A stretch of 64,000 bases of DNA from Candidatus Thorarchaeota archaeon (GTDB lineage Archaea > Asgardarchaeota > Thorarchaeia > Thorarchaeales > Thorarchaeaceae). Location of the stretch: contig JAGXKG010000001.1 of NCBI GenBank assembly GCA_018335335.1, positions 253,600-317,599 of the forward strand, given 5' to 3'. Position numbers and translations under genes: made by a program. Each line of letters begins with the position of its first letter. Position 1 is the first letter of the stretch. Below, piece by piece: positions 5,062 to 36,559 of the stretch. A model generated the notes under the pieces. The model was not told the DNA's origin, made no database searches, and was given only the letters and a program-made list of their open reading frames with translations.

Positions 5062-7428
5062 TTGACAATAAGGGCTGAAATCCATGTTACTGGAATTGTA
5101 CAAGGAGTAGGATTTAGGCCATTCATTTACCGCGTAGCTAAGAGAGAATCTCTCAAAGGATATGTTTTGAATCTTGGAGATGCAGGAGTAAGGATAATAG
5201 CTGAAGGTAACCGCCAAAGCATTCTGAATCTAATTGATCACTTAAAGCATAATCCACCATCGATATCCCGGATCGAATCCCTTGAAATTGAATGGAAAGA
5301 AGCCGATGATGAATTCAGCGATTTCAAAATTGTGAAATCATCGGAAAGAAGAAGTGAAGATGCAGCTCCCGAAATTCCACCGGATATAGCTGTCTGTGAT
5401 AAGTGTATAAAAGAAATGCTAGATCCCTCGTCTCGTTGGTACCTTTATCCGTTTACAGCTTGTGCCGCTTGTGGACCCAGGTTCTCTACAATAACAGACC
5501 TGCCATACGATAGGCCAAATACGACTATGGATGAATTTTCGCTTTGTAATAAATGTAATACGGGATATACCAATCCACTGAATCGGCGATACCATGCACA
5601 AACCACAGCTTGCCCTAAATGTGGCCCCACATACAAACTGACAACTAATGAAAAAGAGATCGCACGTGGACATGAAGCGGTCTCTGAAACTGCGCACCTA
5701 CTAGCAAAGGGATCTATTGTTGCAATACAAGGAATTACGGGAACACATCTCGCTACAAAAACTACGGAATTAGAACCAATTAGGAAACTAAGAAGTAGAA
5801 AACAGAGGCCAAACCAACCTTTTGCAATTATGACAGAGAGCATAGAGAGAATGAAGCAATTCCTAGTCTTTTCAGAATATGAAGAGGAATTACTCATGTC
5901 GTGGAGACGGCCTATTGTATTGATTGAGAAGAAAGAAATGCCAATAAAGAATAATCACGGAGCAGTCAGCGGAATGCCGACCAAGTCTTTTGAGGAAATA
6001 GCTCCCGGATTGGACACAGTGGGGGTTATGTTGCCCTATGCTCCGCTACACCATCTACTCTTTCATTTCAGTCAAGAACCAGCATTCGTCATGACAAGTG
6101 CCAATCCAAGTGGGGTGCCAATGTACAAAGATCCAGAGACTATTCTATCACAGCTTACCAATATAGCTGATTACTTTCTAGTTCACGACCGGGAAATCCG
6201 TCAAAGAGCTGATGATTCTGTTTTGAAGGTCGTTCACAAGAAGAATGCGGTTTTCATAAGACGCTCACGGAGTTTTGTTCCAAATCCAATTACCTTGAAA
6301 CAACCAATCAAAGAAACAAAGATAGTTGGAGTCGGACCAGAAGAAAAGGCGACAGCATCCATTTTGAAATCAGGCAGTATCTATATGACCCAACATATAG
6401 GCGACACAAATCGGCTTGAAAGCTTGGAATTTCTCGACGAAGCCATTCAACACATGATGCACCTTCTCGGAATTGAAAACCTAGATGCTATCGCATGTGA
6501 CTTACATCCTCAATTCCTAAGCACTGAATATGCCGAAGAACAAGCTAGATTAAATGACATAGCTTTACACCGGGTACAACATCATCATGCCCATCTAGCC
6601 GCCATACTTGTTGATCACGAATTAGAACTTGATACCCGTATTGTGTGTATTACAGCCGATGGATATGGATACGGACCTGATGGAAGTGGATGGGGCGGGG
6701 AAATCCTGTTAGGCAACGCTTTAGACTGCACACGAGAATCCGGCTTAATGAAGCAAGTATATCCAGGAGGCGATCTTTCAGCCAAGTTCAGCACGAGAGC
6801 GCTCTTGAGTATACTTCATGATTCTATCCCGAGTGATGAAATCATTAAGTTAGTAGGAAATGCACGAATAAGCAAAAATGCTATAGCAACCGAAGATTCT
6901 ATCTCGATGCTTATCGATATGATAGAGAATGACATAAACACGTTGGCAAGTAGCAGTACAGGACGCGTGCTAGATGCAATTGCATCGGCGCTTGGAGTCT
7001 GTTCTGAGAACACTTACGATGGCGAGTGTCCAATGAAACTTGAAGCTCATGCAAAGGAGACGGATCTGCGAATTGAACCAGTGTACCTAAAGACAAGAGG
7101 AGGAAGAGAACTGGATACTACTGAATTCTTGAAATCAGTAGTTGAACTGAAGAAGAAAGGAATTAATTCGCGAGAAATCGCGTATGCTGCTCAATGGTCG
7201 CTCGGTGAAGCGCTTGCTGAATTAGCCGTAAGAACAGCAGACAATGAAAACATACAACGTATTGGATTCTCAGGAGGGGTTGCTCTAAACCGTATTCTTA
7301 CAAAAGCGATAGTATCACAAATAGAGTCTGTAGGGAAAACACCACTGATACATAACAAGGTTCCTCCAGGAGACGCAGGGATTTCGCTTGGGCAAGTTGC
7401 TGTTGCCGCCCTTCACGAAACAGAGTAG
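5062..7428 (+). CDS. hypF: [NiFe]-hydrogenase maturation carbamoyltransferase HypF
   Basis: 788 aa; N-terminal acylphosphatase domain (VQGVGFRPF), two CxxC-x18-CxxC zinc fingers, YrdC-like and Kae1/YgjD-like C-terminal domains; TTG start. Confidence 0.9.
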   Translation: MTIRAEIHVTGIVQGVGFRPFIYRVAKRESLKGYVLNLGDAGVRIIAEGNRQSILNLIDHLKHNPPSISRIESLEIEWKEADDEFSDFKIVKSSERRSEDAAPEIPPDIAVCDKCIKEMLDPSSRWYLYPFTACAACGPRFSTITDLPYDRPNTTMDEFSLCNKCNTGYTNPLNRRYHAQTTACPKCGPTYKLTTNEKEIARGHEAVSETAHLLAKGSIVAIQGITGTHLATKTTELEPIRKLRSRKQRPNQPFAIMTESIERMKQFLVFSEYEEELLMSWRRPIVLIEKKEMPIKNNHGAVSGMPTKSFEEIAPGLDTVGVMLPYAPLHHLLFHFSQEPAFVMTSANPSGVPMYKDPETILSQLTNIADYFLVHDREIRQRADDSVLKVVHKKNAVFIRRSRSFVPNPITLKQPIKETKIVGVGPEEKATASILKSGSIYMTQHIGDTNRLESLEFLDEAIQHMMHLLGIENLDAIACDLHPQFLSTEYAEEQARLNDIALHRVQHHHAHLAAILVDHELELDTRIVCITADGYGYGPDGSGWGGEILLGNALDCTRESGLMKQVYPGGDLSAKFSTRALLSILHDSIPSDEIIKLVGNARISKNAIATEDSISMLIDMIENDINTLASSSTGRVLDAIASALGVCSENTYDGECPMKLEAHAKETDLRIEPVYLKTRGGRELDTTEFLKSVVELKKKGINSREIAYAAQWSLGEALAELAVRTADNENIQRIGFSGGVALNRILTKAIVSQIESVGKTPLIHNKVPPGDAGISLGQVAVAALHETE

Positions 7429-9981: not shown

Positions 9982-10112
9982 TTATTTGCCTCCGATCCAG
10001 TCCAAGGCTAGTTCAAGTTCAGGAGAAATTAAGTTACGCTATCAGTCTTGTGGTGAACGAGCGGAGTTGTTACACGTGTTCTATTATTGTACTACTTGTA
10101 ATACATGACTAA

Positions 10113-10136
10113 CTCCCCTCTATTTCCACTGGAAAT
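10113..10136 (-). promoter_or_regulatory. Origin recognition box (ORB)-like element, reverse orientation, followed by AT-rich stretch
   Basis: Reverse strand reads TTCCAGTGGAAATAGAGGGGAG, matching archaeal ORB core TCCAGTGGAAAC plus G-tract; >75% AT with duplicated AAAAAATGGAGA at 10137-10260. Confidence 0.5.
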
Positions 10137-10747
10137 AAAAAATGGAGAAGCTCAAAAGACATTTGTATATACATTAAAAAAATGGAGATAAAATAAATAT
10201 GAACTAGCCTATATATATATCTTTCCATAGACCTTCTTATTTCTTCATATTTATTCTACACGAAATCAGGGGGTCATATGATCAATTGGAACACGTGTAA
10301 CAAATTATGCAATTCTTTCACCTTTGAACTTCTTGGACTACCTCAAAAATACGAAATTGTACTACGTCTTGGAATTCAGTGAAAAGATCTAAGCATTCTT
10401 GATAACATACTTCTGGAATCAATATGGCAGAATCATTCACTCTGTTTGCATCTTCACATGTATCTAGAAGACCGGGTTTTCTACGTTCTTTATATCCTTC
10501 TGTTGTCTTCCATTTGTATTTGTAACCATACAGCTGCTTTGTGAATGAAACCCGTTTGGAATTTGCCTCCTTTGAGCTATTACAGTCATACAAAAACAAA
10601 AACGATTTCACATATGACACCACAGATAGTGGAACACATGTTCTAAATTTCAAGCTCTGTATTATACTTTTGAGAGGAAAATGTTAAATCGATGTGTCTC
10701 GCGACTTTCAGTATCGACCAACAGATTCATTGAAAGCTGGTGAATAC

Positions 10748-13402: not shown

Positions 13403-14023
13403 TCACTCTCTATGTATCTGGAATGTAGAAAGGATTCTCTCAGCTCGCTTGATATCGCTCTGAACTTGACTCAGTTCAGTCTTTAGTCTATATGTGTATC
13501 CAGTCCTGTTTCCATACCTTTCTAAATCTCCTTGTCCTTCATCCCAGATTCTTGCAAGGTATGTTGAGGCAGTGCTTTTTGGCATTTTTTCGCCAAAAGT
13601 AGTTTCATAGATTTCTGCGACATCCAATGATGAGAACTTTCCATGTTTAAAAGATGCATAGATAACCATCTGCATCTTTTCGAAGTTACTCATGGAATCG
13701 AAATGAATTTCATCTAGTATCGATTCTTGTACTGCTTCTTCTTCGCGAAATTCACAACCTGTGCTAGTCTCAAGAAACACTTGGAATTTCTCGAACATTT
13801 CATCCACAGAACCTCTGATCTGGAAGCTCGATTCTTCCCCTGTGGCTTCATCATGTACTAGAATCTTGAAATCAAAAGGATTCTCGGTAAGTTTCAAGAT
13901 TTTCTTGAATCTATTAAGAGCTTCATCCGGCTGAACATATTTGCATTCGAAAATTTCCCTTGAACCTGGACCAGAGCTGTATGTGAACTCATATACATAG
14001 GGTGTTCGATCACTCTTGTCCAA
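13403..14023 (-). CDS. Hypothetical protein with probable C-terminal winged-helix
   Basis: 206 aa; C-terminal STASTYLARIWDEG...RTGYTYRLK resembles a wHTH recognition helix plus wing; borders the ORB/iteron region. Confidence 0.45.
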   Translation of the reverse strand: MDKSDRTPYVYEFTYSSGPGSREIFECKYVQPDEALNRFKKILKLTENPFDFKILVHDEATGEESSFQIRGSVDEMFEKFQVFLETSTGCEFREEEAVQESILDEIHFDSMSNFEKMQMVIYASFKHGKFSSLDVAEIYETTFGEKMPKSTASTYLARIWDEGQGDLERYGNRTGYTYRLKTELSQVQSDIKRAERILSTFQIHRE

Positions 14024-14059
14024 GTTAATCCCACAATTTCATTTTTGTTGGTGTAGCTC

Positions 14060-14510
14060 CAGTTAAGAAGCCATTCACATCTTTACAATTAGCTCTGCAA
14101 ATAAGTGTAAGTATGTGAATCGTATATACCTCGATAGTAGCTTTATAATGCAACATATTACCAAAAAACCTTCTGTCTCAATTGAAAACAACAAAAACAG
14201 CCTAATAAACCCTTTTAGAACAAAAATACCCCTCATAAATTCCCAAAGTCAATTTAAAGAATTTTCTCCAATCTCTTCCTTGTTCACTTTGCTATCAGAT
14301 TTGTGAATGGTTGAAAAGATGCTTCATAAGTCTCGTATTCAATCTCCAGTGGAAACGAAGGGGTGGCCTTATTCACATGGGTAAACAGAGTTATGAACTC
14401 TTCATTTTGATATTAGAAGTATTTCCGCTTCGTTCACAAAAACGTATTCACATTCTTGGCGCCATTCACACTAGAGCAATGTGAATATGTGTAGATACTG
14501 TGAAATGTAA
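14060..14510. repeat. Iteron-like array of TTCACA(T)/(A)TGTGAA boxes in a 519-bp intergenic region
   Basis: About 9 copies of the hexamer in both orientations in ~450 bp (about 0.25 expected by chance), including GCCATTCACA twice and ATTCACA...TGTGAAT inverted pairs. Confidence 0.45.
14345..14364 (+). promoter_or_regulatory. ORB-like element (TCCAGTGGAAACGAAGGGGT)
   Basis: Near-exact match to archaeal ORB consensus (TCCAGTGGAAAC core plus GGGG tract). Confidence 0.5.
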
Positions 14511-14542
14511 ATATATTCTCGCCCTAATGCCGCTGTTGTGTG

Positions 14543-16360
14543 TTATAGTACTGTTACAGATTTGGCTAAGTTACGAGGTTTATCTGGATCATACCCCTTT
14601 CTTGTAGCCATGTAGTAGCTAAATAGCTGCAAAGGTATCACAAAAGGCATCACTGAAAACTCAGGCTCAATGCCTTGTGGAACTTGGAAAACGTGATCGG
14701 AAAGGTCCTTCAATTCTTCATCTCCTTTTTCAATCACTGAGATGATAGAAGCTCCTCTTGCTTTCATTTCCATGATATTCCCAACAAGCCTTTCCCTTGT
14801 TTGGTCTTTGGGGGCAACAAAAATGACCGGATATCCTTCTTCAACCAATGCTATTGGACCATGTTTCGATTCGCCTGCACTATAGGCTTCTGCGTGATTA
14901 TATGCAATTTCCTTCAGCTTAAGTGCGCCTTCTCTAGCTGTTGCTATAGATATACCACGCCCTAAGAATAGGAGACTTGGAGCATCATAATAGACTCCCG
15001 CTATGCTCCTTGCTTTTTCTTCTTCCGTAGCTATTACTGTAGATATTACATCGGGAATTTTTTCAAGAGATCTTTCCTTTCTCTCAATCAGTTTCTCACT
15101 TGAACCAGAGAAACGACCTAGCTCAATAGCAATCTGGGCCAACGCGGTTAATTGGACCATGAATGTCTTTGTAGCGGCCACTCCAATTTCCGGCCCTGCT
15201 TGCGTAATTATTGTATGATCCGCGACCCTCGTGATTGAGCTACCTACTACATTGGTCACTGCTATCACAGTTGAACCAAACTTCTTTGCATACTTGGCTG
15301 CGCTAACCGTATCAGTAGTTTCACCTGACTGAGTAATTGCCAATACTAGATCATCTTCAGACAAGGTATCATATATCGTGTCTTCAAAATCGCTTGCTAG
15401 CTCAAAAACCGGGACGATTTCTGACATCGATGCAAACATATGCTTACAGGCCATTCCTGCATGACCTGAAGTTCCCATCGCTATTACATAGATTCGCTCA
15501 GAATTGACAATCATTTCTCCCGCCTTCTCAATGGTTTCCTTGCGAATTCTGAGAGTGTTACGTACAGCGTCCGGCTGCTCATGAATTTCCTTCAGCATAA
15601 AATGTGGAAAACCCGCTTTCTCCGCTTGGTCCGCAGTCCAGCTGATTTTCACGGCATCCCTTTCAACTTCAGAACCATCAGAGAGTTTTTCGAGTTTTAT
15701 CTCCTCTGGAGTGATTATGGCAATTTCTCCATCCAATAAAAGAATCATATCTCTTGTCATAGGAAGAAAAGCTGGAATATCGGACGAGACATATGATGCG
15801 TCTTTTCCCTTCCCAATCACGAGTGGGTTTCCATCTCGTGTACAAACTATACGATCTGGTTCGTCTACTCTCATAGCTACTATCGCATATGTACCATTTA
15901 TTCTGGTCGTGACTTGAGCAACGGCTTCTTTCAAATCATAGCCCTGTTCAAGTAAATCTTCAATCATGTGAGGGATAACTTCTGTGTCTGTTTCCGATTT
16001 GAATTTATGGTTTTTCTTCAATTCTTTCCTTAATTTCATGAAGTTATCTATTACACCATTATGTACAACAGCAACTCTGTTATCACAATCAAAATGTGGG
16101 TGTGCGTTTAAAAGAGATGGAACCCCATGAGTCGCCCATCTGGTATGCCCTATTCCCATTCTTCCTGGTAAATCATCCAGATTCAGTCGTTTATGAACCT
16201 CGTCAATTTTTCCCTTGTCCTTCTTAGTGTGAAGCTTTCCTTCGTAGATGGTTGTTAAGCCTACTGAATCATACCCTCTATACTCCAGACGTTTCAATGC
16301 CTGATGAAGAAAAGGTGCAACTTCTCCACGTTTTTGGACGACACCTACTATACCACACAC
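14543..16360 (-). CDS. glmS: Glutamine--fructose-6-phosphate aminotransferase
   Basis: 605 aa; N-terminal MCGIVG class-II amidotransferase nucleophile; two SIS domains. Confidence 0.9.
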   Translation of the reverse strand: MCGIVGVVQKRGEVAPFLHQALKRLEYRGYDSVGLTTIYEGKLHTKKDKGKIDEVHKRLNLDDLPGRMGIGHTRWATHGVPSLLNAHPHFDCDNRVAVVHNGVIDNFMKLRKELKKNHKFKSETDTEVIPHMIEDLLEQGYDLKEAVAQVTTRINGTYAIVAMRVDEPDRIVCTRDGNPLVIGKGKDASYVSSDIPAFLPMTRDMILLLDGEIAIITPEEIKLEKLSDGSEVERDAVKISWTADQAEKAGFPHFMLKEIHEQPDAVRNTLRIRKETIEKAGEMIVNSERIYVIAMGTSGHAGMACKHMFASMSEIVPVFELASDFEDTIYDTLSEDDLVLAITQSGETTDTVSAAKYAKKFGSTVIAVTNVVGSSITRVADHTIITQAGPEIGVAATKTFMVQLTALAQIAIELGRFSGSSEKLIERKERSLEKIPDVISTVIATEEEKARSIAGVYYDAPSLLFLGRGISIATAREGALKLKEIAYNHAEAYSAGESKHGPIALVEEGYPVIFVAPKDQTRERLVGNIMEMKARGASIISVIEKGDEELKDLSDHVFQVPQGIEPEFSVMPFVIPLQLFSYYMATRKGYDPDKPRNLAKSVTVL

Positions 16361-16909: not shown

Positions 16910-17701
16910 TTGAATGACCTAATAATTGTGAAGCTCGGCGGTTCAGTGATTACCAACAAAGGCGAATCACCCCCATCTGTCAACAACGATCGGATACATC
17001 GAATAGCACGCGAACTCGCCAATCACAATGGCCCTATGATAGCTGTGTTAGGTGGTGGGGCCCATGGTCATCAACCAGCCAGTCGCTATGGATTTGGCAA
17101 CCCTAAAACTCCAAGGCAAAAACGTTTGGCCGGTCTTCCCAAAATCCGGAACAATATGTCAATTCTTTCTTCGGAAGTAGTTGGCTCTTTGCAAGATTCG
17201 GGTCTGCCAGCTGTTGCCTTTCCACCTTTTACCTTTGCTCGTCTTAGGAATAACCACATCCAGCATTTCCCCTGTTCGTTCATAGAAAAGGCATTGAATT
17301 CCGATTTCCTCGTCGTCACTCATGGGGATGTATGTTTTGATGAAAAATTAGGAGCTTCCATATTGAGTGGAGATACGATTGTAGTATATTTGGCCAACAG
17401 ACTCAATCCAACGGGAGTTTACATCGGAACAGATGTTGATGGCGTCCATTATGAAAATCCTGATACTAATCCCAAGGCAAAAGTAATACCTGTAATACAA
17501 TCCAATGACATTGAAAAGGCCTTATCCAGCACTGGCCCATCTTCATCTGTGGATGTTACTGGTGGGATGGACAACAAAGTTAGGGAATTACTCACCATAA
17601 ATCAAAGAACAAAAATTGCCATATTCAATCTGAATATTGCTGGACGACTGTCTACTCTTCTAAAAGGTAAGACACCAATCTGTACACTCATTCAACCATG
17701 A
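16910..17701 (+). CDS. Isopentenyl phosphate kinase (amino-acid kinase family)
   Basis: 263 aa; KLGGS, VLGGGAHGH, THGD, LSGDTIVVYLAN, GTDVDGV, VDVTGGM motifs matching archaeal IPK. Confidence 0.85.
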   Translation: MNDLIIVKLGGSVITNKGESPPSVNNDRIHRIARELANHNGPMIAVLGGGAHGHQPASRYGFGNPKTPRQKRLAGLPKIRNNMSILSSEVVGSLQDSGLPAVAFPPFTFARLRNNHIQHFPCSFIEKALNSDFLVVTHGDVCFDEKLGASILSGDTIVVYLANRLNPTGVYIGTDVDGVHYENPDTNPKAKVIPVIQSNDIEKALSSTGPSSSVDVTGGMDNKVRELLTINQRTKIAIFNLNIAGRLSTLLKGKTPICTLIQP

Positions 17702-20700
17702 ACAAACTGCCTAAATTGGAAGAGATCCCTTCTTTCCAATACCTAATTGCTACATTATCTGGTATAGCATCATCATCTTCTATGATACTAGAATCTCCCA
17801 AGATACATACAACCTCATGTGTTTGACATTCATCACAAGCTGTTTCCGAAATTGAATTGGATATGCGTTTCATTCTGTTTTTTCCAGGTAATACCGCATA
17901 AGATTTGTCTCCTACACAAAAATCGAAAGGATAATGGTCCGACACAATCTCCCTTCCCCTTCTTTTCAATTCCTGCACAATAGCTTCCAAAGCTATTAAC
18001 TTGATACTTTGAAACTTCTTCGCTCCAAGCACCCAAAGACCTGGCTCCAAATTGTGTAAATTCGACTCCTTGCTCAATCTAAACAGATGACACTCCCCTG
18101 TCTCGATCATCTGGGAAAGGATTCGCATTCCTTCGCCTTTTTCCAATGGAATCGATCTTGCCCTTTTCGACTGAATGGCTGTTGTACTAATGAAACTGAG
18201 AAAATCCCCCCACTCAATTGCACCTCCAGAAACAGAAAGAAATTCCCTCAATAACCCAAACCAAATTCTTCTACCAACGCTTGTTCCCGATTTCTTGGTT
18301 GCCCCGTTGAACTGCTCCAAAGCCGACTCAATTTCGTGGCTCTTTTCCTTAGGCTCTTTCTCACCTATTTGAGAACCAGTGCACGTACTAAGCATTCTAT
18401 CAATTGAGCTCTGAAACGCAGGCACAATGGTTACCAAGTCGAATCCATCGATTTTTTCAATTCTTTCGCGAACTTTCGCTGCTGCAATGCTTCCTCTAAC
18501 TATAACATACAGCTCTTCAATTGTATTCCCCATTTTTTTCATACTTTCTTTGATTACATTGATTATTGTTTCAATAGATGGTATTCTAATCCGTTCAGGT
18601 ACTATCAAAATAGCGTTACTTCCCACAATAAAATTGGGTGTGGTTTCCGAACCATCATCTTCGAATCTTCGTATCTCATCCGACTTCTCAAGTATGTACT
18701 GCGATATTGCTGCTTCTATCGATTCGTTGGCGTTCCCCGGCACAGAGAATACAAAGCCTCCCTTAACGACAGGAATTGCTTCCCTCTGGATTATTGAGAG
18801 TGATATGAGCTCCTCGATTAGCTGCTCCCGTGTCATATCAATGTGGTCATAGTTGAGGTTCACCAACAACTCCTCCAATTGTTCTTTTGTTACAAAATCA
18901 CGAGATGCAAGATATCCGGTTACTAATCCAGATATTTCTCCTATGACATGTTCTCTTCCTTTTGATGTTCTTCCCCTTTCCACACAAACTCTCTCTTCCC
19001 CATCATGAGATACCATCATGGGAGTGTCATTGCATTCAACCCCCTCAATTATCTCTTCATCAACTCGATTGCGAATATGTGACGTAGATTCTTCCAGCCC
19101 ATATTCCGGCATCAACGTTTTGATTTCGAAGACACTCACATCTGGTAATTTGATCAAAGCATTGCCTACGGTGAGTGACTGCAAATACTCCTCCTGTCTA
19201 TCATCTAGAGAAAGATATCTTCTAGCAACCCCACTATCATACGGTAATCTAAAGGTAATTTTCGTGGAGGTATTGGCCAAAATATTCGATGATATATTGG
19301 GTCTTGTTGAAACCACCACGACACCCTGTCCAGTCGCTCTTTGAAGCATGACCATGGACTCTCCCGTTGTGACATCTGCGGCTGAACTTCTCGTGTAACT
19401 CTCGGGTACCAAATTGTAGGCCTCTTCAAGAACTACAATATGTCGAAGCCCTTCGGTTATACCTCTCTGCATGGCAGAATCAAAGACTCTTTTCACAATA
19501 ACGTTGTACAAGAGCCTCGCTGCATCCATGCCCCCAATCCGTGCTACATAGCTCAAGTCTACAATAACTCTTTCATCAAGTAGTGTTGAAATTTCCAACG
19601 TCTTTTTCCCAGGCCCAAAAACTGTAGCTAAGGGTTCCCTGAATAAGATTTGAAGCCGATTTAGCAATGCATCTCTAGTCATTTCGGAAATGTGGCCTTT
19701 AGTACCCGCAGCAAAAATCATTCGTTCAAGGGATGCCACTGTTTTCTCTTCCTCTTCTAGAACTACTTTTTCCACAGATTCTCGTAGAAGTCTTTCCATG
19801 GCGGGTGAAAGCTCTGCTGAAACACCCCTCTCGTTCAATAACTCTCTGATTATGGCGAAAGTGATATGTGCGTGTCTTTCGGGACTATCTCCTTCTGGCG
19901 CAAAAAGGTTGAGAACGAAATTATTTTCGGCACCAGGAATCAAAACATCAACGGACCCAAACCCTACCTCTCGAAGATCCGAATATTCAGAACCCTTTAC
20001 ATCGAATACTAACCATGGAATTTCCGTTTTGGCACTTAGCTCTGCAATGAGTCTCTTCACCAATGTGGTTTTCCCTGTACCTGTTGCCCCCATCACTGCT
20101 ATATGCTCTCTGAGCCAATCTTTCTTCAATCCAACCTCACTAAGACACCGAGAATTGAATACTGCCCGTCCGATTACTAACTCGTTGTTGATAGTCTCCT
20201 TTTCCGGAATAGAAAAGAATGGTACAGCCTTTCCTGTCACTACTGGCAGTTGCTGGGACGGTGTGTTGAAGTAACCAACAAGTCTCTCCAAATGTATTTT
20301 GGAGCTTTTCACAGGCCGCCTGTTCAATACTCGATAGCCGTTTCTACCTCCTAATTTTACCGATTCAAGTGAAAGATTCCCTTTTTCACCCCATATCGAT
20401 ATTAGAAGCCCCCTAACGCCTTCTTCAGCAAGCCTTAACTCAATTTGCGAGTTAGCTTGTATTGTTACGTAGATACTTGCTTCAAACCATGCATCAACAT
20501 CTCCAATTTCCTTGTACTCCTCCAGCAACCTCTCTTTCATAGCATGGTCAGAGAGTGACTCCCTCTTTTCACGCTCCTTTCTGCGAATCTTCTTCCAGTG
20601 TTTTTCCAATGCCCTTTTCTCTCTTCCAGGATTTGCGGGCTTAAATGCACAAGTCAGACTAGCATTGTAACCTTGTCTTAGAAGCCCTACTAGAAAAGTT

Positions 20701-21416
20701 CCTATCTGTGTCGCTTCTTCGTTAGGATTGATGCTCGGATTTCCAGCAACAACAATGATTTTCCTATGCGTTCCATCCCGGCTAGTTTTTTCTTGCCGCC
20801 TTGTTTCTAGATTCGGTTCACGCATGGTTTCAATAGCTTCTCTTAGTTCTCCCTCCCTCAATCTTTCTACCTCAACCGTATTGAGCGTGCTACGTAAGAT
20901 AGCTTCACATCTAGTAGATTCAATTTGGAGCTGTTGTCGCAAGCTTGTGACTGAATCTCCCCGTGCTGTTATGAATAGTCGGATGAAAGGCTCTTGGTTG
21001 ATAGTACCTACTTCATATGCCATAGACGTATAATCATCCATACCTTCACGAAGAGCAAGAAGTGCTGACACGACATACTTATGCTCTCCATTTTCGTTAA
21101 TCTTAACTGATCCAGTAACCGAATTGAGTTGAAGAACACAAGTTGCGACAATAGACCTATCCAGCTGTACAACAAGAATATCATTCTCTATCAACATCGA
21201 TATCTTCTGTGATTTGATTTTGGAACCTATTACGATACCTCCAGTAATCGGGGGAAATAGAAGAAGAAGACCTTCGACCAAGGCTCTCATAGGTACAGCT
21301 AATGGCGGCGCAACCCCTGTGATTGGCAAGACATAGGCCATTACAAAATAGAATATTGAAAATGCGGTTGAACTTGGCCATGCAATTCGTATGCACTTTA
21401 GAAACTTGACATCCAT
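17688..21416 (-). CDS. Giant membrane-anchored HerA/VirB4-like (DUF87) P-loop ATPase
   Basis: 1242 aa; two N-terminal hydrophobic helices; central Walker A IAVMGATGTGKTT and Walker B-like HIVVLEEAYNL as in HerA/VirB4/TrbE ATPases; ~450-aa C-terminal extension of unknown function. Confidence 0.6.
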   Translation of the reverse strand: MDVKFLKCIRIAWPSSTAFSIFYFVMAYVLPITGVAPPLAVPMRALVEGLLLLFPPITGGIVIGSKIKSQKISMLIENDILVVQLDRSIVATCVLQLNSVTGSVKINENGEHKYVVSALLALREGMDDYTSMAYEVGTINQEPFIRLFITARGDSVTSLRQQLQIESTRCEAILRSTLNTVEVERLREGELREAIETMREPNLETRRQEKTSRDGTHRKIIVVAGNPSINPNEEATQIGTFLVGLLRQGYNASLTCAFKPANPGREKRALEKHWKKIRRKEREKRESLSDHAMKERLLEEYKEIGDVDAWFEASIYVTIQANSQIELRLAEEGVRGLLISIWGEKGNLSLESVKLGGRNGYRVLNRRPVKSSKIHLERLVGYFNTPSQQLPVVTGKAVPFFSIPEKETINNELVIGRAVFNSRCLSEVGLKKDWLREHIAVMGATGTGKTTLVKRLIAELSAKTEIPWLVFDVKGSEYSDLREVGFGSVDVLIPGAENNFVLNLFAPEGDSPERHAHITFAIIRELLNERGVSAELSPAMERLLRESVEKVVLEEEEKTVASLERMIFAAGTKGHISEMTRDALLNRLQILFREPLATVFGPGKKTLEISTLLDERVIVDLSYVARIGGMDAARLLYNVIVKRVFDSAMQRGITEGLRHIVVLEEAYNLVPESYTRSSAADVTTGESMVMLQRATGQGVVVVSTRPNISSNILANTSTKITFRLPYDSGVARRYLSLDDRQEEYLQSLTVGNALIKLPDVSVFEIKTLMPEYGLEESTSHIRNRVDEEIIEGVECNDTPMMVSHDGEERVCVERGRTSKGREHVIGEISGLVTGYLASRDFVTKEQLEELLVNLNYDHIDMTREQLIEELISLSIIQREAIPVVKGGFVFSVPGNANESIEAAISQYILEKSDEIRRFEDDGSETTPNFIVGSNAILIVPERIRIPSIETIINVIKESMKKMGNTIEELYVIVRGSIAAAKVRERIEKIDGFDLVTIVPAFQSSIDRMLSTCTGSQIGEKEPKEKSHEIESALEQFNGATKKSGTSVGRRIWFGLLREFLSVSGGAIEWGDFLSFISTTAIQSKRARSIPLEKGEGMRILSQMIETGECHLFRLSKESNLHNLEPGLWVLGAKKFQSIKLIALEAIVQELKRRGREIVSDHYPFDFCVGDKSYAVLPGKNRMKRISNSISETACDECQTHEVVCILGDSSIIEDDDAIPDNVAIRYWKEGISSNLGSLFMVE

Positions 21417-27983: not shown

Positions 27984-30656
27984 ATGCGAGTCAAGCTCCT
28001 GCTATCCGTTCAAATATCATGTCTTGTCCTTCTAGCTTTCGTTATGCCAGTTTCAGCCTTCTATTTTCAACTTGATTACTTCCAGACAGATCAGCTGGTT
28101 TATGAAGTGGGAGAAACCATTGAAATGGCCGCCAAGCTTACTGCAGATTTTGGAAGTGATGGTTGGTGTTATGTTTCATTTACTGTGTCTGAAGATTCAC
28201 GACAAATCTACGAAGACGCCTATTTCATTCCTCCTTCTCCCGAACCAAGAGTTCTTCAGTCTTCTTTTGTATTAACGTCCAATACCGTTTCACCAGGTAT
28301 GAATGGCAGTACTGGACATGCGATGTTTGATGTTGAAATGTATGACAAGTACACTCATGGTGAAAGTGAAACCATTCAAATCAACTTTACAAGAGGCGAG
28401 CTATTGGCTTCACCAATCAATCCACTCGAATTCGAATATGGATTGAATCATACATTTGTATTCAAATTAGGATCTAGATACAATCAGGACGTGTTTGAGG
28501 ATGACGTTCCCGTTATGGCAAATCTATATGACTCTGGCAATCGATGTGTTGGCAACTGGTTACCGTCAGTAAATGCCACCGGCCATATCCATTTCGACCT
28601 CAATAATGCAAGTCTTCCGACAGGGGATTACAACTTACGTCTAGAAACTAATGGTACTGATTCATTTGTTCCTTTCTCTAATTCATTTATTGTGTCTATT
28701 TTACCTGCAAACTCCTCACTTACTGTTCTATCTGCAGACTCATCTGTATACTGTCTATCTTCTGACGGAACACATTCCGATTCTGCAAATATAGTTGTTC
28801 AACATCTTAATGGAGAAAACAACCCAATCACTGATAGCTCACTTACATGGTCAACCGCCTTTTCAAGCGGAACAATGAACTCCCTACAGGATGGCAAATA
28901 TAACTGTTCCATTCCCTTTGAAGTTGCTCCTGGTAACTATAGCATCATTATTCATGCAACCAATCCAAGCTATACGTCTGTAAATGTGAGCTTGATAATC
29001 GAAGCTGAAACTCGCCCTATTGACTTTAATATTTCACTAAAAGATAAGGCGCTGGCAGGAAAAAGTGTTGAATTCATCTTATCTGTCCAGGATTTGTTGG
29101 CTAATGAAAACGTGGCAAACCATCCTCTTTTCTTAGAGCTAATGAACAACAACTACTCCATATCTACACCTTTGTTATATACAAACGAATCCGGGATTTT
29201 GTGTTACAACTTCTCGATTCCCCAAGAAATGTGGGGTTCAAGCTCTCTTTTCATCATCTCTAATGAATCAGCATTCTATACTAACAACAACTTCTCCCAT
29301 AGTTTCACTATCTATTATCTTCCCATCATTATAACACAAAATGTGACACAGGCTTTTTTGGATAGCGAAATAGCAATGAATACAACAGTCTTAAATCCAC
29401 TCTATATGCCCGTTTCCGAAATTCAGATTGTAGTAACCGATTGTCGAAACAATACTTTGACGACGGCTTTCACTGACCTCGAAGGCATAGCTAACCTCAG
29501 CTGGAGAGTGAACTCATCCTACTCAACTGGCCCATATGATTTTTGCTTTCACTTAGCATCTTCCCCCGCCAAGTATTCTGAAGAACGAATGTACTGGCAT
29601 ACAATCAATCTCTACCACCCACTAGTTTTCAATTTACAGAATCATTCTCTAGAAACTCTTAGGAACTCAACTTTGACCTTCTCCTTTCAAGTAGATTCTG
29701 AGAATACATATTCTACTTCCGTCGACATTCTACTAACCAACTATGATATCCGTTGCAATCTATCAATCGAAATCTCTACGAGTTCAGCGAAAAATGCAAG
29801 CTTGAAAATACCCACCAATATTTCTTTAGGCCCACACCAAATCAGTTATGAATCGCTCAACACAAGCTACAAGTTCAGAAATCCTTCCTATTTCACTTTG
29901 ATAGTAATAGAAAAAATGAATGCAAGCTGTTCGGATTTTCAAGCTACGTATAACAATGAACTATCATTTGACCTGCTAACGGTTGATTGGGATAATACAA
30001 GCATATCTACAGTGTATGTTACTGCAGAAATTGGAGGGGTACGGATTGCAACCAACATCTTGGCAAACCTGACTCAAACTCCCAACGTTCAAATCAGCTT
30101 GCCTTTGCGTCTTCCTCCGGGACAGCATCAGCTTTTGTTAAATGTTTGTCACCCTTATCGAGTCAATCAGACTATATCTACACAGATAGTCATATGGATG
30201 GAGACACGTATTACAATTACTACACTCGAAGTTCAAGAATTATATGCATCATCTCCTGCTATAACTCAGGATACTCTACGCAATATCTCAGATGGATCTA
30301 TCACGCGCCCTCCACCAATCTTTCTCAATGGCTCCACATCAACTACCCCTTCAGTTGCCCGAGACACCTCTCGACTCAATTGTCCTAAGCTCAGCTCAGG
30401 AACCAATAGTTGTTCTACTGTGGATGCAAAATCCAAAACCTCATCATCCGGGAATGGCCAGACTGTTCTAAGCCTCAGAGATTTTAATGAAGATTGTTCA
30501 TGGTTTTCTGCAATTACTTGTTCTACTGTTCTTGAAGTACACCCAAATGAGATTATGCCCCATTCCGCTTTCTCAGGACCTGTGACGACCGTGTCTTTCA
30601 GAAAATGGGAGTTATTCCTGATTTTCGTAGTTATTCGCCGAACCAACTCATCATGA
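27984..30656 (+). CDS. Large secreted surface glycoprotein (3' end uncertain; real gene probably ends before ~30266)
   Basis: 890-aa ORF; signal peptide MRVKLLLSVQISCLVLLAFVMPVSA; very dense N-x-S/T sequons; last ~130 codons are low-complexity and antisense to korA, so likely read-through. Confidence 0.5.
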   Translation: MRVKLLLSVQISCLVLLAFVMPVSAFYFQLDYFQTDQLVYEVGETIEMAAKLTADFGSDGWCYVSFTVSEDSRQIYEDAYFIPPSPEPRVLQSSFVLTSNTVSPGMNGSTGHAMFDVEMYDKYTHGESETIQINFTRGELLASPINPLEFEYGLNHTFVFKLGSRYNQDVFEDDVPVMANLYDSGNRCVGNWLPSVNATGHIHFDLNNASLPTGDYNLRLETNGTDSFVPFSNSFIVSILPANSSLTVLSADSSVYCLSSDGTHSDSANIVVQHLNGENNPITDSSLTWSTAFSSGTMNSLQDGKYNCSIPFEVAPGNYSIIIHATNPSYTSVNVSLIIEAETRPIDFNISLKDKALAGKSVEFILSVQDLLANENVANHPLFLELMNNNYSISTPLLYTNESGILCYNFSIPQEMWGSSSLFIISNESAFYTNNNFSHSFTIYYLPIIITQNVTQAFLDSEIAMNTTVLNPLYMPVSEIQIVVTDCRNNTLTTAFTDLEGIANLSWRVNSSYSTGPYDFCFHLASSPAKYSEERMYWHTINLYHPLVFNLQNHSLETLRNSTLTFSFQVDSENTYSTSVDILLTNYDIRCNLSIEISTSSAKNASLKIPTNISLGPHQISYESLNTSYKFRNPSYFTLIVIEKMNASCSDFQATYNNELSFDLLTVDWDNTSISTVYVTAEIGGVRIATNILANLTQTPNVQISLPLRLPPGQHQLLLNVCHPYRVNQTISTQIVIWMETRITITTLEVQELYASSPAITQDTLRNISDGSITRPPPIFLNGSTSTTPSVARDTSRLNCPKLSSGTNSCSTVDAKSKTSSSGNGQTVLSLRDFNEDCSWFSAITCSTVLEVHPNEIMPHSAFSGPVTTVSFRKWELFLIFVVIRRTNSS

Positions 30657-31501
30657 ACTTCCGGGTCTGCAGTTTCCCTGAATCCTTTTCTATCGTGAGT
30701 TGATCCAGTTATTAGCAATTTGTGCCCATCCCCAAATCTTGGCATAATCGAATGTCCTGTGTTGTCTACTGTTCCGAATGGTAAGTCACCTTCCTTGGCC
30801 AGTTTTCGTGATACAGTCCTATCTATTGTATCATCAATTTGCACCCTCTCTCTGGAATGTGCGACCACTTCGTCAGCCAAGATAATTACTGGATGTCTTA
30901 GTTTTTCGGCAATTTCAAATCCTCTGATTGTAAGATTATACATTTCTTGCGCAGAATTAGGAGCTAGGACAACACTTTCGTGATCTCCATGTGTGCCCCA
31001 CCTAGATTGCATCAAATCTCCTTGAGCTGCCTTGGTAGCTTGACCCGTACTGGGACCTGTTCTCTGAACGTTTACTATAACACATGGTGTCTCAGTCATA
31101 ATTGCATATCCGAGATTCTCCTGCATCAAACTGAAACCGGGCCCTGAGGTGGCAGTCATCGACATTTTTCCACCCCATGAAGCCCCTATAATCGCTGAGA
31201 TGGCGCCCATCTCGTCTTCCATTTGAAGATATACGCCATCTTCTTCAGGGAGTCTTTCCGACATTACCTCTGCAATTTCAGACGCGGGGGTTATCGGATA
31301 TCCCGAAAAGAAGCGACAACCTGCAGCGAGAGCCCCTTCAGCACAGGCTTTGTTACCTTGCCAAAAATTTACTGAAAGGTTCTTAGAAGACATTGATGTG
31401 ACACTCAGAAAATGGTTTGATGCGAGAACTAGATAAGGCTTCACATGGTGGCCATCTATTGATTCTTTCCTAGGCACGGATTCATCTTCTTGGATATCCA
31501 A
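30266..31501 (-). CDS. korA: 2-oxoacid:ferredoxin oxidoreductase alpha subunit (KorA/PorA type), no adjacent beta subunit
   Basis: GNKACAEGALAAGCRFFSGYPITPASEI N-terminus, QRTGPSTGQATK, C-terminal domain III; true start probably internal Met (MSSKNLS...). Confidence 0.8.
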   Translation of the reverse strand: MDIQEDESVPRKESIDGHHVKPYLVLASNHFLSVTSMSSKNLSVNFWQGNKACAEGALAAGCRFFSGYPITPASEIAEVMSERLPEEDGVYLQMEDEMGAISAIIGASWGGKMSMTATSGPGFSLMQENLGYAIMTETPCVIVNVQRTGPSTGQATKAAQGDLMQSRWGTHGDHESVVLAPNSAQEMYNLTIRGFEIAEKLRHPVIILADEVVAHSRERVQIDDTIDRTVSRKLAKEGDLPFGTVDNTGHSIMPRFGDGHKLLITGSTHDRKGFRETADPEVHDELVRRITTKIRNNSHFLKDTVVTGPEKAEWGIISFGCTSRTVEQVIAENHEQSSLKSLRLRTVWPFPDDEVLDFASTVEQLLVPELSLGQLSREVSRATEGVVDVEPLRKIGGGRVIDPSEILRRVS

Positions 31502-31554: not shown

Positions 31555-31655
31555 GCGGCCGTGGTCTAGCATGGTTAGGACTGAAGCTTCCCAAGCTTCC
31601 GACCCGAGACGGGAATGCAATTTCCGCGGGAATTCAAATCCCGGCGGCCGCACCA
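31555..31655 (+). tRNA. tRNA with 23-24-nt insertion in variable/T region; best reading tRNA-Gly (CCC); CCA encoded
   Basis: Canonical 5' half: acceptor GCGGCCG/CGGCCGC, U8, D-arm GUCU-AGCAUGGUUA-GGAC, anticodon arm GAAGC-UUCCCAA-GCUUC; 3' T-loop UUCAAAUCCCGG present; an extra segment with direct repeat CGGGAAU and a second hairpin (CGGGA-AUGCAAU-UUCCG, GCA) lies between. Confidence 0.6.
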
Positions 31656-31844
31656 TTTTCGTTTTTCGTCATCTTTAAGGGAACACCCTCTACAGATTAC
31701 TAGGCGAGTGATGACTGTTATGACCCCAATGAGTCTTCTTGACGATGATATGGATCTTGAGTGAGGAACTCGCCACTAATACTTTCGGTCACCTCCTATA
31801 TCAGTATTCGATTAAACGTATAAACCGCAAAATGCTTTTAAGTA

Positions 31845-33068
31845 TTGAACCTTCAAAATTCTTTGAATGTAATGCCAGTAGATTTTGTTGAAGATGAACT
31901 TGGTAGACATACAGTATTCAAGTCGGAGCAATATCTATCAATAGATTATGTACCAGAGACCTTGCCTCATCGAGAGAATGAGCTTAGGACACTAGCTCGG
32001 AGCTTCAAAACCCTGATAACCTCACCTGGGAAAACAAGCCACAAATTCATAATTGAAGGTCCTGTTGGTACTGGTAAAACCGCCGTTACAAAACGCTTTG
32101 CGGAGCAAATGCTTCGTGCTGCGAGAAGAAGAAACATTCATCTCCACAAAATACATGTAAATTGCAGAGTAAACAAGAGCAAATACTTGGTCTATCTGCG
32201 AATCCTCAAGGAATTCAAACCCAAATTCCCTCGGAGAGGGCATTCCCCCGAGGAGCTTCTTCAACTGATAATGGATGTTCTTGATTCTGAAGATAGGTAC
32301 CTTCTGCTTATCCTTGACGAGCTTGACTATTTCATAACACAAAAGGGTGGAAGCATAGTCTACGATTTAACGCGTTTGAATGACAATCGCCTCAATTCTC
32401 CCCAAAGGCTTTCAATGATTGGCATCGGGCGGGACATACCTCTAGATGAATCCGCATTCGATTCTAGTACATTGAGTACTTTGCAGCGCAATATTCTACG
32501 GTTTGAGAAATATAACTCAGAAGCACTTTACGACATCGTTAGTCAGCGGTCAGAAATGGCCTTCAAAGACAATACTGTAATGGAAGAAACCCTTCAGGTT
32601 ATTTCTGACATAGCTTCTGAACGTGGTGATGCCAGATACGCCATAGAGATTCTTTGGCGTGCTGGAAAACAGGCTGATACAGAGCGTTCTGATGTTGTGA
32701 TACCGGATTTTGCACGAAAGGCTAAAGCTGATACACACCCGGAGCTAAGAATGGAGGTTTTCTCAACTCTGCCACTACAGAATAAGCTTCTATTGTTGGC
32801 TGCAGCACGCCAGTTGAAAGAAGTACGAAGTGCATATGTAACAATGGGTGAAGTTGAAGAGATGTATCGAACTATTTGTGAAGAATATGATGAAGCCCCC
32901 CGTGCGCATACTCAGATTTGGGAATGGGTTCAGGATTTGAATGCACATGGCGTGATTGACACAAAACGATCCGGTGAAGGACAACGTGGGCAGACAACAC
33001 TCATTGGTCTCTCAGATGTGCCTGCAGGAATGCTGGAAGCATTTTTGCTCGACTTCTTGAATGAATAG
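31845..33068 (+). CDS. orc1/cdc6: Orc1/Cdc6 replication initiator
   Basis: 407 aa; AAA+ Walker A GPVGTGKT, Walker B LILDELD, sensor motifs, C-terminal winged helix. Confidence 0.9.
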   Translation: MNLQNSLNVMPVDFVEDELGRHTVFKSEQYLSIDYVPETLPHRENELRTLARSFKTLITSPGKTSHKFIIEGPVGTGKTAVTKRFAEQMLRAARRRNIHLHKIHVNCRVNKSKYLVYLRILKEFKPKFPRRGHSPEELLQLIMDVLDSEDRYLLLILDELDYFITQKGGSIVYDLTRLNDNRLNSPQRLSMIGIGRDIPLDESAFDSSTLSTLQRNILRFEKYNSEALYDIVSQRSEMAFKDNTVMEETLQVISDIASERGDARYAIEILWRAGKQADTERSDVVIPDFARKAKADTHPELRMEVFSTLPLQNKLLLLAAARQLKEVRSAYVTMGEVEEMYRTICEEYDEAPRAHTQIWEWVQDLNAHGVIDTKRSGEGQRGQTTLIGLSDVPAGMLEAFLLDFLNE

Positions 33069-33086
33069 GGGGCTTATGCTTCTACT

Positions 33087-33371
33087 ATGACTACCAATCA
33101 TGAATCCGACCTGCCAATTGAGGAGGTATTTTCATCCAAAGGTAGAATGAAAATCATCAAAGAACTTGCCCTTTCTCAGGAACTCAACATTTCAGAGCTC
33201 TGTAAGAGAGTTAGCTTGAACCATAGCACAACAAAATCTCATTTAGAAGCCCTTATGGATGCTGACCTAGTAGAAGAGAAGGTTTTCGGAAGAATCAAGA
33301 TTTATCGATATAGAATCGAAGATCTCCGAGCTCGCTCTATTAAGAATCTTATCGACCTCTGGCGGTCTTAG
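33087..33371 (+). CDS. Winged-helix transcriptional regulator (ArsR/TrmB-like)
   Basis: 94 aa; HTH region MKIIKELALSQELNISELCKRVSLNHSTTKSHLEAL. Confidence 0.6.
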   Translation: MTTNHESDLPIEEVFSSKGRMKIIKELALSQELNISELCKRVSLNHSTTKSHLEALMDADLVEEKVFGRIKIYRYRIEDLRARSIKNLIDLWRS

Positions 33372-33385
33372 TGGGTGAGTATTGA

Positions 33386-34195
33386 ATGAGCTCATACTTA
33401 GTTCGTGTTTTCTACCTCGGAAACCGTTATCATGGTTCACAAATACAACCTAATCTAGCAACCATTCAAGGGGAGCTCATTCGTGCCTTTTGTGATTGGA
33501 GTGGTGAAGAACATACAGCAAAAACAATACAGCTTGCCGGGAGAACAGATCGTGGTGTTCATAGTCTAGGCCAAATCGGCATTGTAAACACGAAGAAGAC
33601 CTTGGAACTTGAAGAAGTGAATAGAATCCTTCCTGATGATATAGTTCTCTGGGCAGCTTCTGAAGCGCCCCCGAACTTCAATGTACGTTATGACATTCTA
33701 CTTCGACATTACAGATACTATTGGTCATCCAGTGAACAACTTGATGTCACGAAAATGAAGAAAGCTGCTCAGCAGTTAGTGGGCACTCATGATTTTTCAC
33801 GTCTCTCCAAACCCGACCCAAATCGTACCAACATCTCCACCATCCTAAATATCGCTGTCACAAACCAAGATGACCTCTTCGTAACTGATATACACGGAAC
33901 CAATTTTTTGTGGAAAATGGTTCGGAAGATTGTTAGCTTATTAATCGAAATTGGAATGCATAAGATGAACCCTTCAATCATTGGAAAACTGTTATCAGGA
34001 CAGGGTATTTCGGGGGGAATCCATCCTGCGCCCCCAGAATGCCTTGTTCTGATGGAATCGGTGGTACCTCTCGAAATGAAATCGAATATCAGTGCTCTAT
34101 ATCGAATTCGCGGAAAGATTCGCGATTACCGAGACATGCTTCACCGCGTGACTAGAACTCTAAATGGCCTCAATGACGATTTGCCATTTTCCTAA
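33386..34195 (+). CDS. truA: tRNA pseudouridine(38-40) synthase TruA/Pus1 family
   Basis: 269 aa; catalytic GRTDRGVHS motif; overall TruA architecture. Confidence 0.85.
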   Translation: MSSYLVRVFYLGNRYHGSQIQPNLATIQGELIRAFCDWSGEEHTAKTIQLAGRTDRGVHSLGQIGIVNTKKTLELEEVNRILPDDIVLWAASEAPPNFNVRYDILLRHYRYYWSSSEQLDVTKMKKAAQQLVGTHDFSRLSKPDPNRTNISTILNIAVTNQDDLFVTDIHGTNFLWKMVRKIVSLLIEIGMHKMNPSIIGKLLSGQGISGGIHPAPPECLVLMESVVPLEMKSNISALYRIRGKIRDYRDMLHRVTRTLNGLNDDLPFS

Positions 34196-36348: not shown

Positions 36349-36533
36349 TACTATGTTGTCTCCTTATTTGTGAAACCAAATTCATAGATGTTAAATCTAT
36401 ACTAACTTGTATTGGAGTATTCTCTCCTGTTCCTGAATTCTAGAGTTGCTTTTTGGTCTATTGTTCTGCCAATACAGATTCACCCAATATGGGTGTTGGT
36501 TCCACCCATACCTGTGGTTTGTTTGCCCAACTT

Positions 36534-36559
36534 AAAGGCATCGTGAGAACGATGCCTTT
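36534..36559. promoter_or_regulatory. Perfect 10-bp-stem hairpin AAAGGCATCG-TGAGAA-CGATGCCTTT in divergent rfcS/GINS-like promoter region
   Basis: Perfect inverted repeat; no downstream T-tract, so not a typical archaeal terminator. Confidence 0.3.

Follow-up and report, generated by a model that had tools for sequence, protein, structure and literature searches.

The 519-bp gap at positions 14024-14542 of the window (the whole 64,000-nucleotide stretch analysed here, from a Thorarchaeota-like Asgard archaeon) is probably, in our moderately confident view, the operator and promoter region of a winged helix-turn-helix (wHTH) regulator linked to a replication origin, joined to an outlying Orc1/Cdc6 site of the neighbouring origin. 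The gap separated the stop codon of glmS from the TTG start of a gene for a protein of 206 amino acids (aa), whose homologues with 65-94% identity were labelled Thorarchaeota. Both genes were on the minus strand; the region therefore follows glmS and precedes the 206-aa gene, and an earlier, sequence-only reading of the same DNA was mistaken in placing it upstream of glmS. It contained one full origin recognition box (ORB), called ORB-A here, within an array of about ten (A)TTCACA/TGTGAA(T) boxes, some of them single and the others forming three inverted pairs (Table 1). We infer each protein-binding step of this reading from the sequence. The boxes would serve the neighbouring wHTH protein as operators, its dimers occupying the inverted pairs; the proximal pair around a TATA-like element would lead to autorepression of the wHTH gene; and an extra N-terminal domain of the protein may, in combination with the distal pairs, give rise to a higher-order complex. 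Orc1/Cdc6 would sit on ORB-A side by side with a wHTH dimer. The state of the origin would in this way be linked to how strongly the regulator is expressed, and perhaps to how much Orc1 is available nearby.

When all hexamers were counted without preselection, TGTGAA/TTCACA was the most enriched word of the region. The word was found 9 times within the 519 bp (14074-14504), compared with 57 times in the remaining 63.5 kb of the window, and the count expected from this background was 0.47 (Poisson P = 2e-9). The 7-mer ATTCACA was found 7 times against 0.13 expected. The roughly nine copies in both orientations counted by the sequence-only reading were thus real and held up against the window background, although its expected number of about 0.25 was too low; the inverted pair that it had singled out, ATTCACACTAGAGCAATGTGAAT, was located at 14464-14486. 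On the gene strand, counted from the start codon, there were boxes at -481, -463, -447, -429, and -415, one at -354, and the pairs at -285/-265 and -97/-56. The boxes were 6-7 bp long, in two orientations, and irregularly spaced at 13-188 bp. In the distal pair, all 13 of the 13 columns of TGTGAATGGCGCC were invariant. In the proximal pair, the conserved ACTCACACTTATTTG block contained a TATA-like TTATTT (AAATAA on the plus strand, 14101-14106), and 14073-14120 is the presumed promoter of the wHTH gene. In a related locus, L010, the equivalent proximal pair flanked TTTAAATA, about 21 nt ahead of the ATG. The single box at -354 (6R) was 6 nt off the G-string side of ORB-A and, together with a conserved degenerate TTTAC half-site, formed an imperfect palindrome abutting ORB-A.

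ORB-A itself, TCCAGTGGAAACGAAGGGGT, occurred once in the window, at 14345-14364 on the plus strand, and no further site was found in the window at up to 3 mismatches (≤3; 0 expected in shuffles). Its dyad, TCCAGTGGAAA (14345-14355), fitted the mini-ORB dyad core TTCCAnnGGAAA with the invariant TTCC ... GAA, and its G-string GGGG (14360-14363) followed 4 nt past the dyad and was invariant in 7 loci. A dyad core and a G-string at a fixed short distance, two features of an ORB, were both present. The reverse-strand core, TTTCCACTGGAG, exactly matched that of the ORB2 oligonucleotide of Pyrococcus furiosus, which is bound by Cdc6 in vitro and whose sequence is printed in PMC1904270. The almost exact ORB reported earlier at this position was genuine, and we regard it as a predicted binding site for Orc1/Cdc6. 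The dyad pointed toward the wHTH gene and the G-string toward glmS; the site was 321 nt from the TTG start of the gene, at gene-strand positions -341 to -322.

ORB-A and the boxes kept their places in eight orthologous Thorarchaeota loci, whereas the spacers had diverged. In an alignment of seven of the orthologous Thorarchaeota regions, sixteen of the 20 columns of ORB-A were invariant, which made it as conserved as the ORBs of the core origin described below, and boxes 3R (with its GGCGCC), 4R, 6R, 7F, 8R, 9F, and 10R were invariant or almost so; the other 426 columns had a mean identity of 63%, and 85 of them were gapped. In all Thorarchaeota loci retrieved, the orthologous intergenic region measured 431-545 bp, including those in which a gene other than glmS was the neighbour upstream. 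Enrichment of TTCACA recurred in L001-L006, L008, and L010, with P = 1e-6 to 1e-11 in seven further loci. Loci L001-L003 were metagenome-assembled genomes of Thorarchaeota or Promethearchaeota. Chromosomal synteny was kept across genomes whose orthologous wHTH proteins shared only 60-70% identity. Within the window, 519 bp was among the longest gaps, as the sequence-only reading had noticed, but such a length was not unique (721, 465, 455, and 452 bp were also found).

A survey of metagenome contigs with the ORB 19-mer CCCCTTCGTTTCCANTGGA linked the boxes to the gene. More than 120 contigs with a GC content of 27% to 72% were returned. At 28 of the 98 sites with enough flanking sequence, the dyad side of the ORB had a gene of the wHTH family on the same strand at a distance of 90-600 nt. 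At 25 of all 121 sites, orc1/cdc6 was divergent on the C-string side; both genes were present at 6 sites. A TGT[G/T]AA box lay within 24 nt of the ORB (≤24 nt) at 20 of the 27 sites with the wHTH gene versus 1 of the 67 sites without it (Fisher P = 1e-13; P = 8e-8 after duplicate removal), and the box density was 4.8 per site with the gene versus 0.8 without. Therefore, the boxes go with the wHTH gene and not with ORBs in general.

The combination of boxes, ORB, and wHTH-family gene recurred as a grammar in other archaeal lineages, often right beside orc1/cdc6; the homologous region adjoined orc1 in L010, L012, L059, L115, and L136. The order in L010 was orc1/cdc6 on the minus strand, a 485-bp gap, the wHTH gene, a 97-aa gene, a palindrome-flanked core consisting of ORB, AT-rich stretch, and ORB, and iorAB. 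In Odinarchaeia (L012), the wHTH gene was divergent from orc1 and an ORB pair was 1.5 kb downstream, whereas in Jordarchaeia (L015) the order was core origin, 95-aa gene, an 802-bp region with one ORB, wHTH gene, orc1, and the polD small subunit. In L013, the wHTH gene was between a three-ORB upstream region and an ORB pair that preceded orc1 and polD. In L115, a single gap between orc1 and the wHTH gene contained the core ORB pair, then a box beside ORB-A, and then further boxes, with ORB-A about 170 nt from the ORB/AT-rich/ORB core. The enriched word upstream of the wHTH gene was TGTGAA in Thorarchaeota and L010, TGTTAA in Jordarchaeia (14 copies, P = 1e-16), and TGTAAA in Odinarchaeia (5 copies). 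Two other upstream regions showed features of their own. In L013, which belongs to a lineage encoding reverse gyrase, a 61-bp tandem duplication was present at 5738-5847, upstream of the wHTH gene; each unit had a GTGAAT box and an ORB, ACCCCTCGATTTCAACTGGAG, and the third ORB was opposed with the G-strings inward. In Hodarchaeales L016 (3507-5000), the wHTH homologue had a 1.5-kb upstream region of 21% GC in which a mini-ORB, ATATTCCACTGGAAAAATA, was located at about 4322; a HerA-like DUF87 gene was directly 3' of the homologue, and no orc1 was found within 5 kb.

The 206-aa protein, whose TTG start was conserved, was modelled with AlphaFold2 (predicted local distance difference test, pLDDT, 79) as an N-terminal duplicated beta-beta-alpha domain, a winged helix(-turn-helix), and a C-terminal helix. 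The best Foldseek matches in the PDB were RosR, PadR, MecI, and BlaI (E about 5e-3), followed by weak matches to Cdt1 C-terminal domains (E about 1e-2), and the best match in a profile-to-PDB search was MecI (E = 0.08); the winged-helix character suspected earlier for this flanking gene was thus borne out by the model. The N-terminal domain modelled alone (pLDDT 83.5) gave weak ERH-like Foldseek matches (E = 1e-2, template modelling score about 0.5), which were not relied on. No Pfam or NCBIfam match was found for the protein, and its 65-94% identical Thorarchaeota homologues also had no Pfam domain. By sequence, the protein did not qualify as Penicillinase_R, whereas the distant homologue P0135 scored 28.1 bits against the Pfam cut-off of 22.6. 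A modelled wHTH fold and inverted-repeat candidate operators at the gene's own TATA-like element, as in regulators of the BlaI/MecI/CopY type, were both observed. The full-length form of the protein was found in Thorarchaeota only; shorter homologues of 135-180 aa shared the winged helix, including the conserved helix STxSTYLxRL, and a single beta-beta-alpha unit. The family was found in Thor-, Odin-, Jord-, and Hodarchaeal Asgard lineages, its named members being from Odinarchaeia, Hodarchaeales, Jordarchaeia, and Geothermarchaeales (one cluster member so labelled). A profile search with A6 returned mostly Thorarchaeota proteins that were already listed.

The origin to which ORB-A appears to belong is the core at 10070-10300, the textbook origin of the locus, where initiation is expected from the sequence. 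Its intergenic region (9982-10317) was the source of the first ORB of the sequence-only reading. The core contained the lowest-GC 80 bp of the window (21%), was flanked by GAACACGTGTTC-type palindromes, and kept its architecture in all 7 Thorarchaeota loci, with the same layout in L010; in L008 and Jordarchaeia L015, just one side of the ORB pair had the palindrome. At least two inverted ORBs around an unwinding element, which mark an oriC, were found at 10070-10300 and not at 14024-14542. No second, inverted ORB within 14024-14542 was conserved in the seven-locus alignment, and the lone candidate partner, TTTGGGAATTTATGAGGGGT on the gene strand (14227-14246), was rejected because it was not conserved in Thorarchaeota. 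The lowest-GC 80 bp of the region (27.5% at 14185-14264) ranked about 14th in the window, and orc1/cdc6 was 17.3 kb away from ORB-A. The region is thus probably not an independent origin, and the earlier suggestion of a second origin did not fit. Among the proposals made earlier, that of an ORB pair member 4.2 kb from the first ORB came nearest: the link to the first ORB is real because the other intergenic region is the canonical origin, and the arrangement in L115 shows ORB-A as a third ORB that lies outside the core but within the origin region. The distance between ORB-A and the core was 4.2 kb in the window and 1.1-1.7 kb in L008 and L010. In basal Thorarchaeota L008, where the two dehydrogenase genes were missing, the wHTH gene was accompanied by a 93-aa gene and the core origin, and the 4.2 kb in the window is derived, these metabolic genes having been inserted. 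The GC skew of the 64 kb was not used since it was dominated by gene orientation, and a scan for bacterial-type promoters and terminators was uninformative for archaeal DNA.

A second candidate for an origin-associated protein, judged by its position, is that encoded by the gene of about 95 aa abutting the core. Members of this family abutted the core ORB pair in all four of Thorarchaeota, L010 (6526-6819), Jordarchaeia L015 (3911-4198), and Odinarchaeia L012 (3698-3997). No significant Pfam, NCBIfam, or PDB match was found for the family, and a Cas2 match at E = 0.66 was disregarded.

Several observations weighed against the operator and promoter reading. The box-binding protein was assigned from co-occurrence alone, and the metagenome sites were phylogenetically non-independent. 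The recognition helix STxSTYLxRL was nearly invariant across lineages, yet the box varied (TGTGAA, TGTTAA, TGTAAA), and the equally conserved GAACAYRTGTTC palindromes of the core origin could be the target of the wHTH protein instead. A distance of 250-400 nt separated ORB-A and the distal boxes from the presumed promoter downstream of them, a long way for the control of transcription in archaea. The equivalent region contained the most AT-rich stretch of the locus in L003, L008, and L015. Finally, ORB-A and the boxes were retained in Thorarchaeota though orc1 had moved 17 kb off, and because they were kept after this move, they may serve replication and not transcription.

The region could accordingly be read as a working part of the origin, either an accessory site for initiator loading or titration or a second initiation zone, which would act on replication and not on the transcription of the wHTH gene, with Orc1/Cdc6 at ORB-A aided or blocked by the box-binding protein. 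We consider this possible but rather unlikely. Besides the retention of ORB-A after the relocation of orc1, its conservation to the degree of the core ORBs would be expected of such a part, as would its third-ORB-like place about 170 nt from the core within the single gap of L115. An AT-rich stretch was present on the dyad side of ORB-A and was the locus minimum in L003, L008, and L015, the upstream region of the wHTH gene had 2-3 ORBs in L013 and L017, and the Pyrococcus dp1 ORB cluster and Haloarcula oriC2D are precedents. However, the Thorarchaeota regions had a single ORB with no conserved inverted partner (the candidate at 14227-14246 was unconserved), the AT-rich stretch in the window was ordinary for intergenic DNA (about 14th), and the ORBs of L013 and L017 had facing G-strings, the opposite of the core geometry. 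In Sulfolobus, origin activity needs both ORBs around the unwinding element (PMC12141716). The replication reading and the operator and promoter reading are not mutually exclusive. A bolder proposal, which we put forward tentatively and hold to be unlikely, is that the 206-aa protein and its short homologues are a new, widespread archaeal origin factor that stands beside Orc1/Cdc6 on the box-ORB element and controls initiation. As a co-factor, it might help to place Orc1 or keep it off, or it might contribute to a site of the datA/DARS type at which the initiator is titrated or reset.

It is more doubtful still that the boxes are bound by another factor, such as the ~95-aa protein or a nucleoid protein like UBP, and that the wHTH protein binds elsewhere, for example at the GAACAYRTGTTC palindromes. 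The near-invariance of the recognition helix and the palindromes across lineages while the boxes drifted would fit this assignment, the ~95-aa gene accompanied the module in four lineages, and UBP is a precedent for a small sequence-specific protein on an essential non-ORB origin motif. Against it, Jordarchaeia and Odinarchaeia, the two lineages with altered boxes, also differed in recognition-helix residues. The boxes tracked the wHTH gene at otherwise identical ORBs and bracketed its own TATA-like element, whereas a tblastn match to the ~95-aa protein of the window was found in only 2 of the 120 loci. A UBP-like identity of the ~95-aa protein was unsupported by sequence, with no match in Pfam, NCBIfam, or the PDB.

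That the conserved blocks are a structured noncoding RNA or a long structured 5' untranslated region, with ATTCACA...TGTGAAT hairpins, is very improbable. RNAalifold paired the boxes into hairpins, and the flanking genes on the same strand would allow transcription, but the covariation term of +0.31 gave no support, and all stems were the same invariant heptamer. Single boxes were left unpaired, an F box in L006 was swapped for a box of the opposite orientation, and the region contained an ORB, a known DNA element. No Rfam match was found on the whole window at the gathering threshold or on the region at E ≤ 1.

Next to no weight was left for a chance cluster or a plasmid or virus iteron remnant, although short AT-rich words can cluster in AT-rich spacers and the array resembles iterons: the local P = 2e-9, the values of 1e-6 to 1e-11 in seven more loci, the conserved synteny, the ordinary GC content for the genome, and the absence of tandem direct repeats of 17-22 bp in the region refuted it as far as sequence comparison goes. 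The plasmid-like iteron region proposed by the sequence-only reading was rejected in favour of short, irregular, two-way boxes on a chromosomal locus syntenic across Thorarchaeota, and no Rep-like match was found in Pfam or NCBIfam for the neighbouring 206-aa protein.

The presumed initiator gene orc1/cdc6 had no ORB upstream in the window; the gap before it contained a minus-strand gene and an intron-bearing tRNA-Gly. It was followed by the genes for the large and small RFC subunits and MCM (31845-39368), with NurA and HerA at 50954-53627; this replication gene set was 17-40 kb from the origin candidate. The tRNA-Gly(CCC) gene (about 31555-31660, plus strand) was 190 bp before orc1/cdc6 and had an encoded CCA and an intron of about 24 nt at a non-canonical position (about 31604-31630). 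It was missed by ARAGORN and Rfam, and ARAGORN called a tRNA-Gly after in silico deletion of 23-25 nt. Further upstream, an 890-aa open reading frame (27984-30656, plus strand) overlapped a 411-aa one (30266-31501, minus strand) by about 390 bp, and one of these mechanical calls is probably too long; the 411-aa product resembled the alpha subunit of 2-oxoacid:ferredoxin oxidoreductase. A 1242-aa HerA/FtsK-like (DUF87) protein, encoded at 17688-21416 on the minus strand, was conserved near the origin module in all Thorarchaeota loci.

Table 1. Features of the origin-linked region, the core origin, and nearby genes, with positions in the window.
Feature	Position	Strand	Description
Core oriC candidate	10070-10300		palindrome, ORB-B, AT-rich stretch, degenerate inverted ORB, palindrome
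Palindrome TTACACGTGTTC	10070-10081		left edge of core origin
ORB-B	10114-10135		core origin
AT-rich stretch, ~120 bp	10136-10254		core origin
Degenerate inverted ORB	10255-10274		core origin
Palindrome GAACACGTGTAA	10289-10300		right edge of core origin
~95-111-aa gene, unknown family	10318-10653	minus	abuts core origin; consensus LYxYDC..NARRVxFTKELYGYxYxWKTK
206-aa winged-helix (wHTH) gene	13403-14023	minus	the gap is its upstream region
Promoter-proximal candidate operator, 9F + 10R	14073-14120		ATTCACA and TGTGAAT around the conserved ACTCACACTTATTTG block; all conserved
Box 10R	14073-14079		TGTGAAT, proximal pair
Box 9F	14114-14120		ATTCACA, proximal pair
Middle candidate operator, 7F + 8R	14282-14308		gene strand ATTCACA-N13-AGTGAAC
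Box 8R	14282-14288		degenerate tenth box, GTTCACT (gene strand AGTGAAC); 5/6 invariant
Box 7F	14302-14308		ATTCACA; 7/7 invariant
ORB-A	14345-14364	plus	full origin recognition box; 20-mer unique in window
Box 6R	14371-14377	plus	ATTCACA (plus), TGTGAAT (gene strand); 6/7 columns invariant
Box 5R	14433-14438	plus	gene strand TGTGAA; this genome only, mean identity 0.62, not conserved
Box 4R	14446-14452	plus	gene strand TGTGAAT; 6/7 columns invariant
Distal candidate operator, 2F + 3R	14458-14486		ATTCACA-N9-TGTGAAT inverted pair, then GGCGCC
Box 3R	14464-14470		arm of distal inverted pair; adjoins invariant GGCGCC at 14458-14463
Box 2F	14480-14486		arm of distal inverted pair
Box 1F	14499-14504	minus	TTCACA on gene strand; farthest from gene; mean identity 0.86
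glmS	14543-16360	minus	ends at 14543, so the gap is 3' of glmS
orc1/cdc6	31845-33068	plus	Pfam Cdc6_C, Cdc6_lid, AAA_22; presumed ORB-binding initiator; 17.3 kb from ORB-A

ORB sites set apart from the core and winged-helix repressors that control their own genes have both been described before. On the main reading, the region is like the separated ORB clusters of Thermococcales and haloarchaea, with a new presumed partner protein. In Thermococcales, a second ORB cluster, consisting of ORB3 and mini-ORBs within dp1 about 1.5 kb from oriC, is bound by Pyrococcus Cdc6/Orc1 in vivo and in vitro (PMC1904270). Both systems have a conserved ORB site 1-2 kb from the core origin with one or more origin-associated genes between, and the same ORB core, TTTCCACTGGA. 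The Thermococcales cluster differs in being inside a coding gene, with cdc6 between the clusters and no second motif or partner protein described, whereas here a single intergenic ORB lay in a box array tied to a wHTH gene. Initiator sites outside the unwinding region are also found in Haloarcula hispanica oriC2D, where 11 ORBs in 722 bp act by titration, and in the DnaA boxes of E. coli datA and the dnaA promoter; these sites control initiation or initiator supply via titration or autoregulation (PMC3936714). oriC2D has no accessory motif, in contrast to the one ORB with about ten boxes for a different, presumed protein, known from sequence alone, in the present region. Another similar arrangement is that of Sulfolobus oriC1, where two of ORB1-3 are inverted about the unwinding element and the remaining one lies farther out, together with the ucm motif bound by UBP (PMC12141716); the Thorarchaeota origin region likewise had three ORBs in the same arrangement and a non-ORB motif, for which the binder is presumed. 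UBP, a beta-rich protein of 111 aa with hundreds of genomic sites, is not of the wHTH type, and ucm is inside the unwinding element (PMC12141716), whereas the motif array described here was outside the core with its presumed binder encoded alongside.

On the regulator side, the protein resembled the BlaI/MecI/CopY, PadR, and RosR autorepressors in having a winged helix followed by a C-terminal helix and inverted-repeat candidate operators overlapping its own promoter. It differed from them in the absence of a Pfam or NCBIfam model, in the extra N-terminal duplicated beta-beta-alpha domain, and in the layout of three candidate operators and single boxes over 430 bp, one of which was joined to an ORB. 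A non-Orc gene conserved beside an archaeal origin is also known from WhiP, a winged-helix initiator encoded beside Sulfolobus oriC3, and from the haloarchaeal origin-associated genes oapABC (PMC3607249, PMC12141716, PMC7002104). The Thorarchaeota protein is known by sequence and model and not as an initiator, and no detectable sequence relationship to them was shown. In the literature searched, we found no description of Asgard archaeal replication origins, nor any account of archaeal origins, those of Asgard archaea in particular, at which the coupling of a box array, an ORB, and a wHTH gene of their own is conserved.

Together with 10070-10300, the locus allows an origin region of Thorarchaeota to be modelled from sequence, with a canonical, palindrome-flanked core of ORB, AT-rich stretch, and ORB, and an outlying ORB joined to the candidate operator array of the conserved wHTH gene. 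The association of gene, box, and ORB yields predictions that could be tested with two purified proteins and one 520-bp DNA fragment. Should the wHTH protein be no more than a transcription factor that regulates itself from a promoter responsive to Orc1, the locus would still help to locate origins in metagenome-assembled genomes of Asgard archaea. A wHTH protein that acts on Orc1 would add a new regulator to archaeal initiation, in a lineage that bears on how the eukaryotic ORC/Cdc6/Cdt1 system arose, and as an origin factor it would open a tangible way into origin regulation among the archaea most closely related to eukaryotes.

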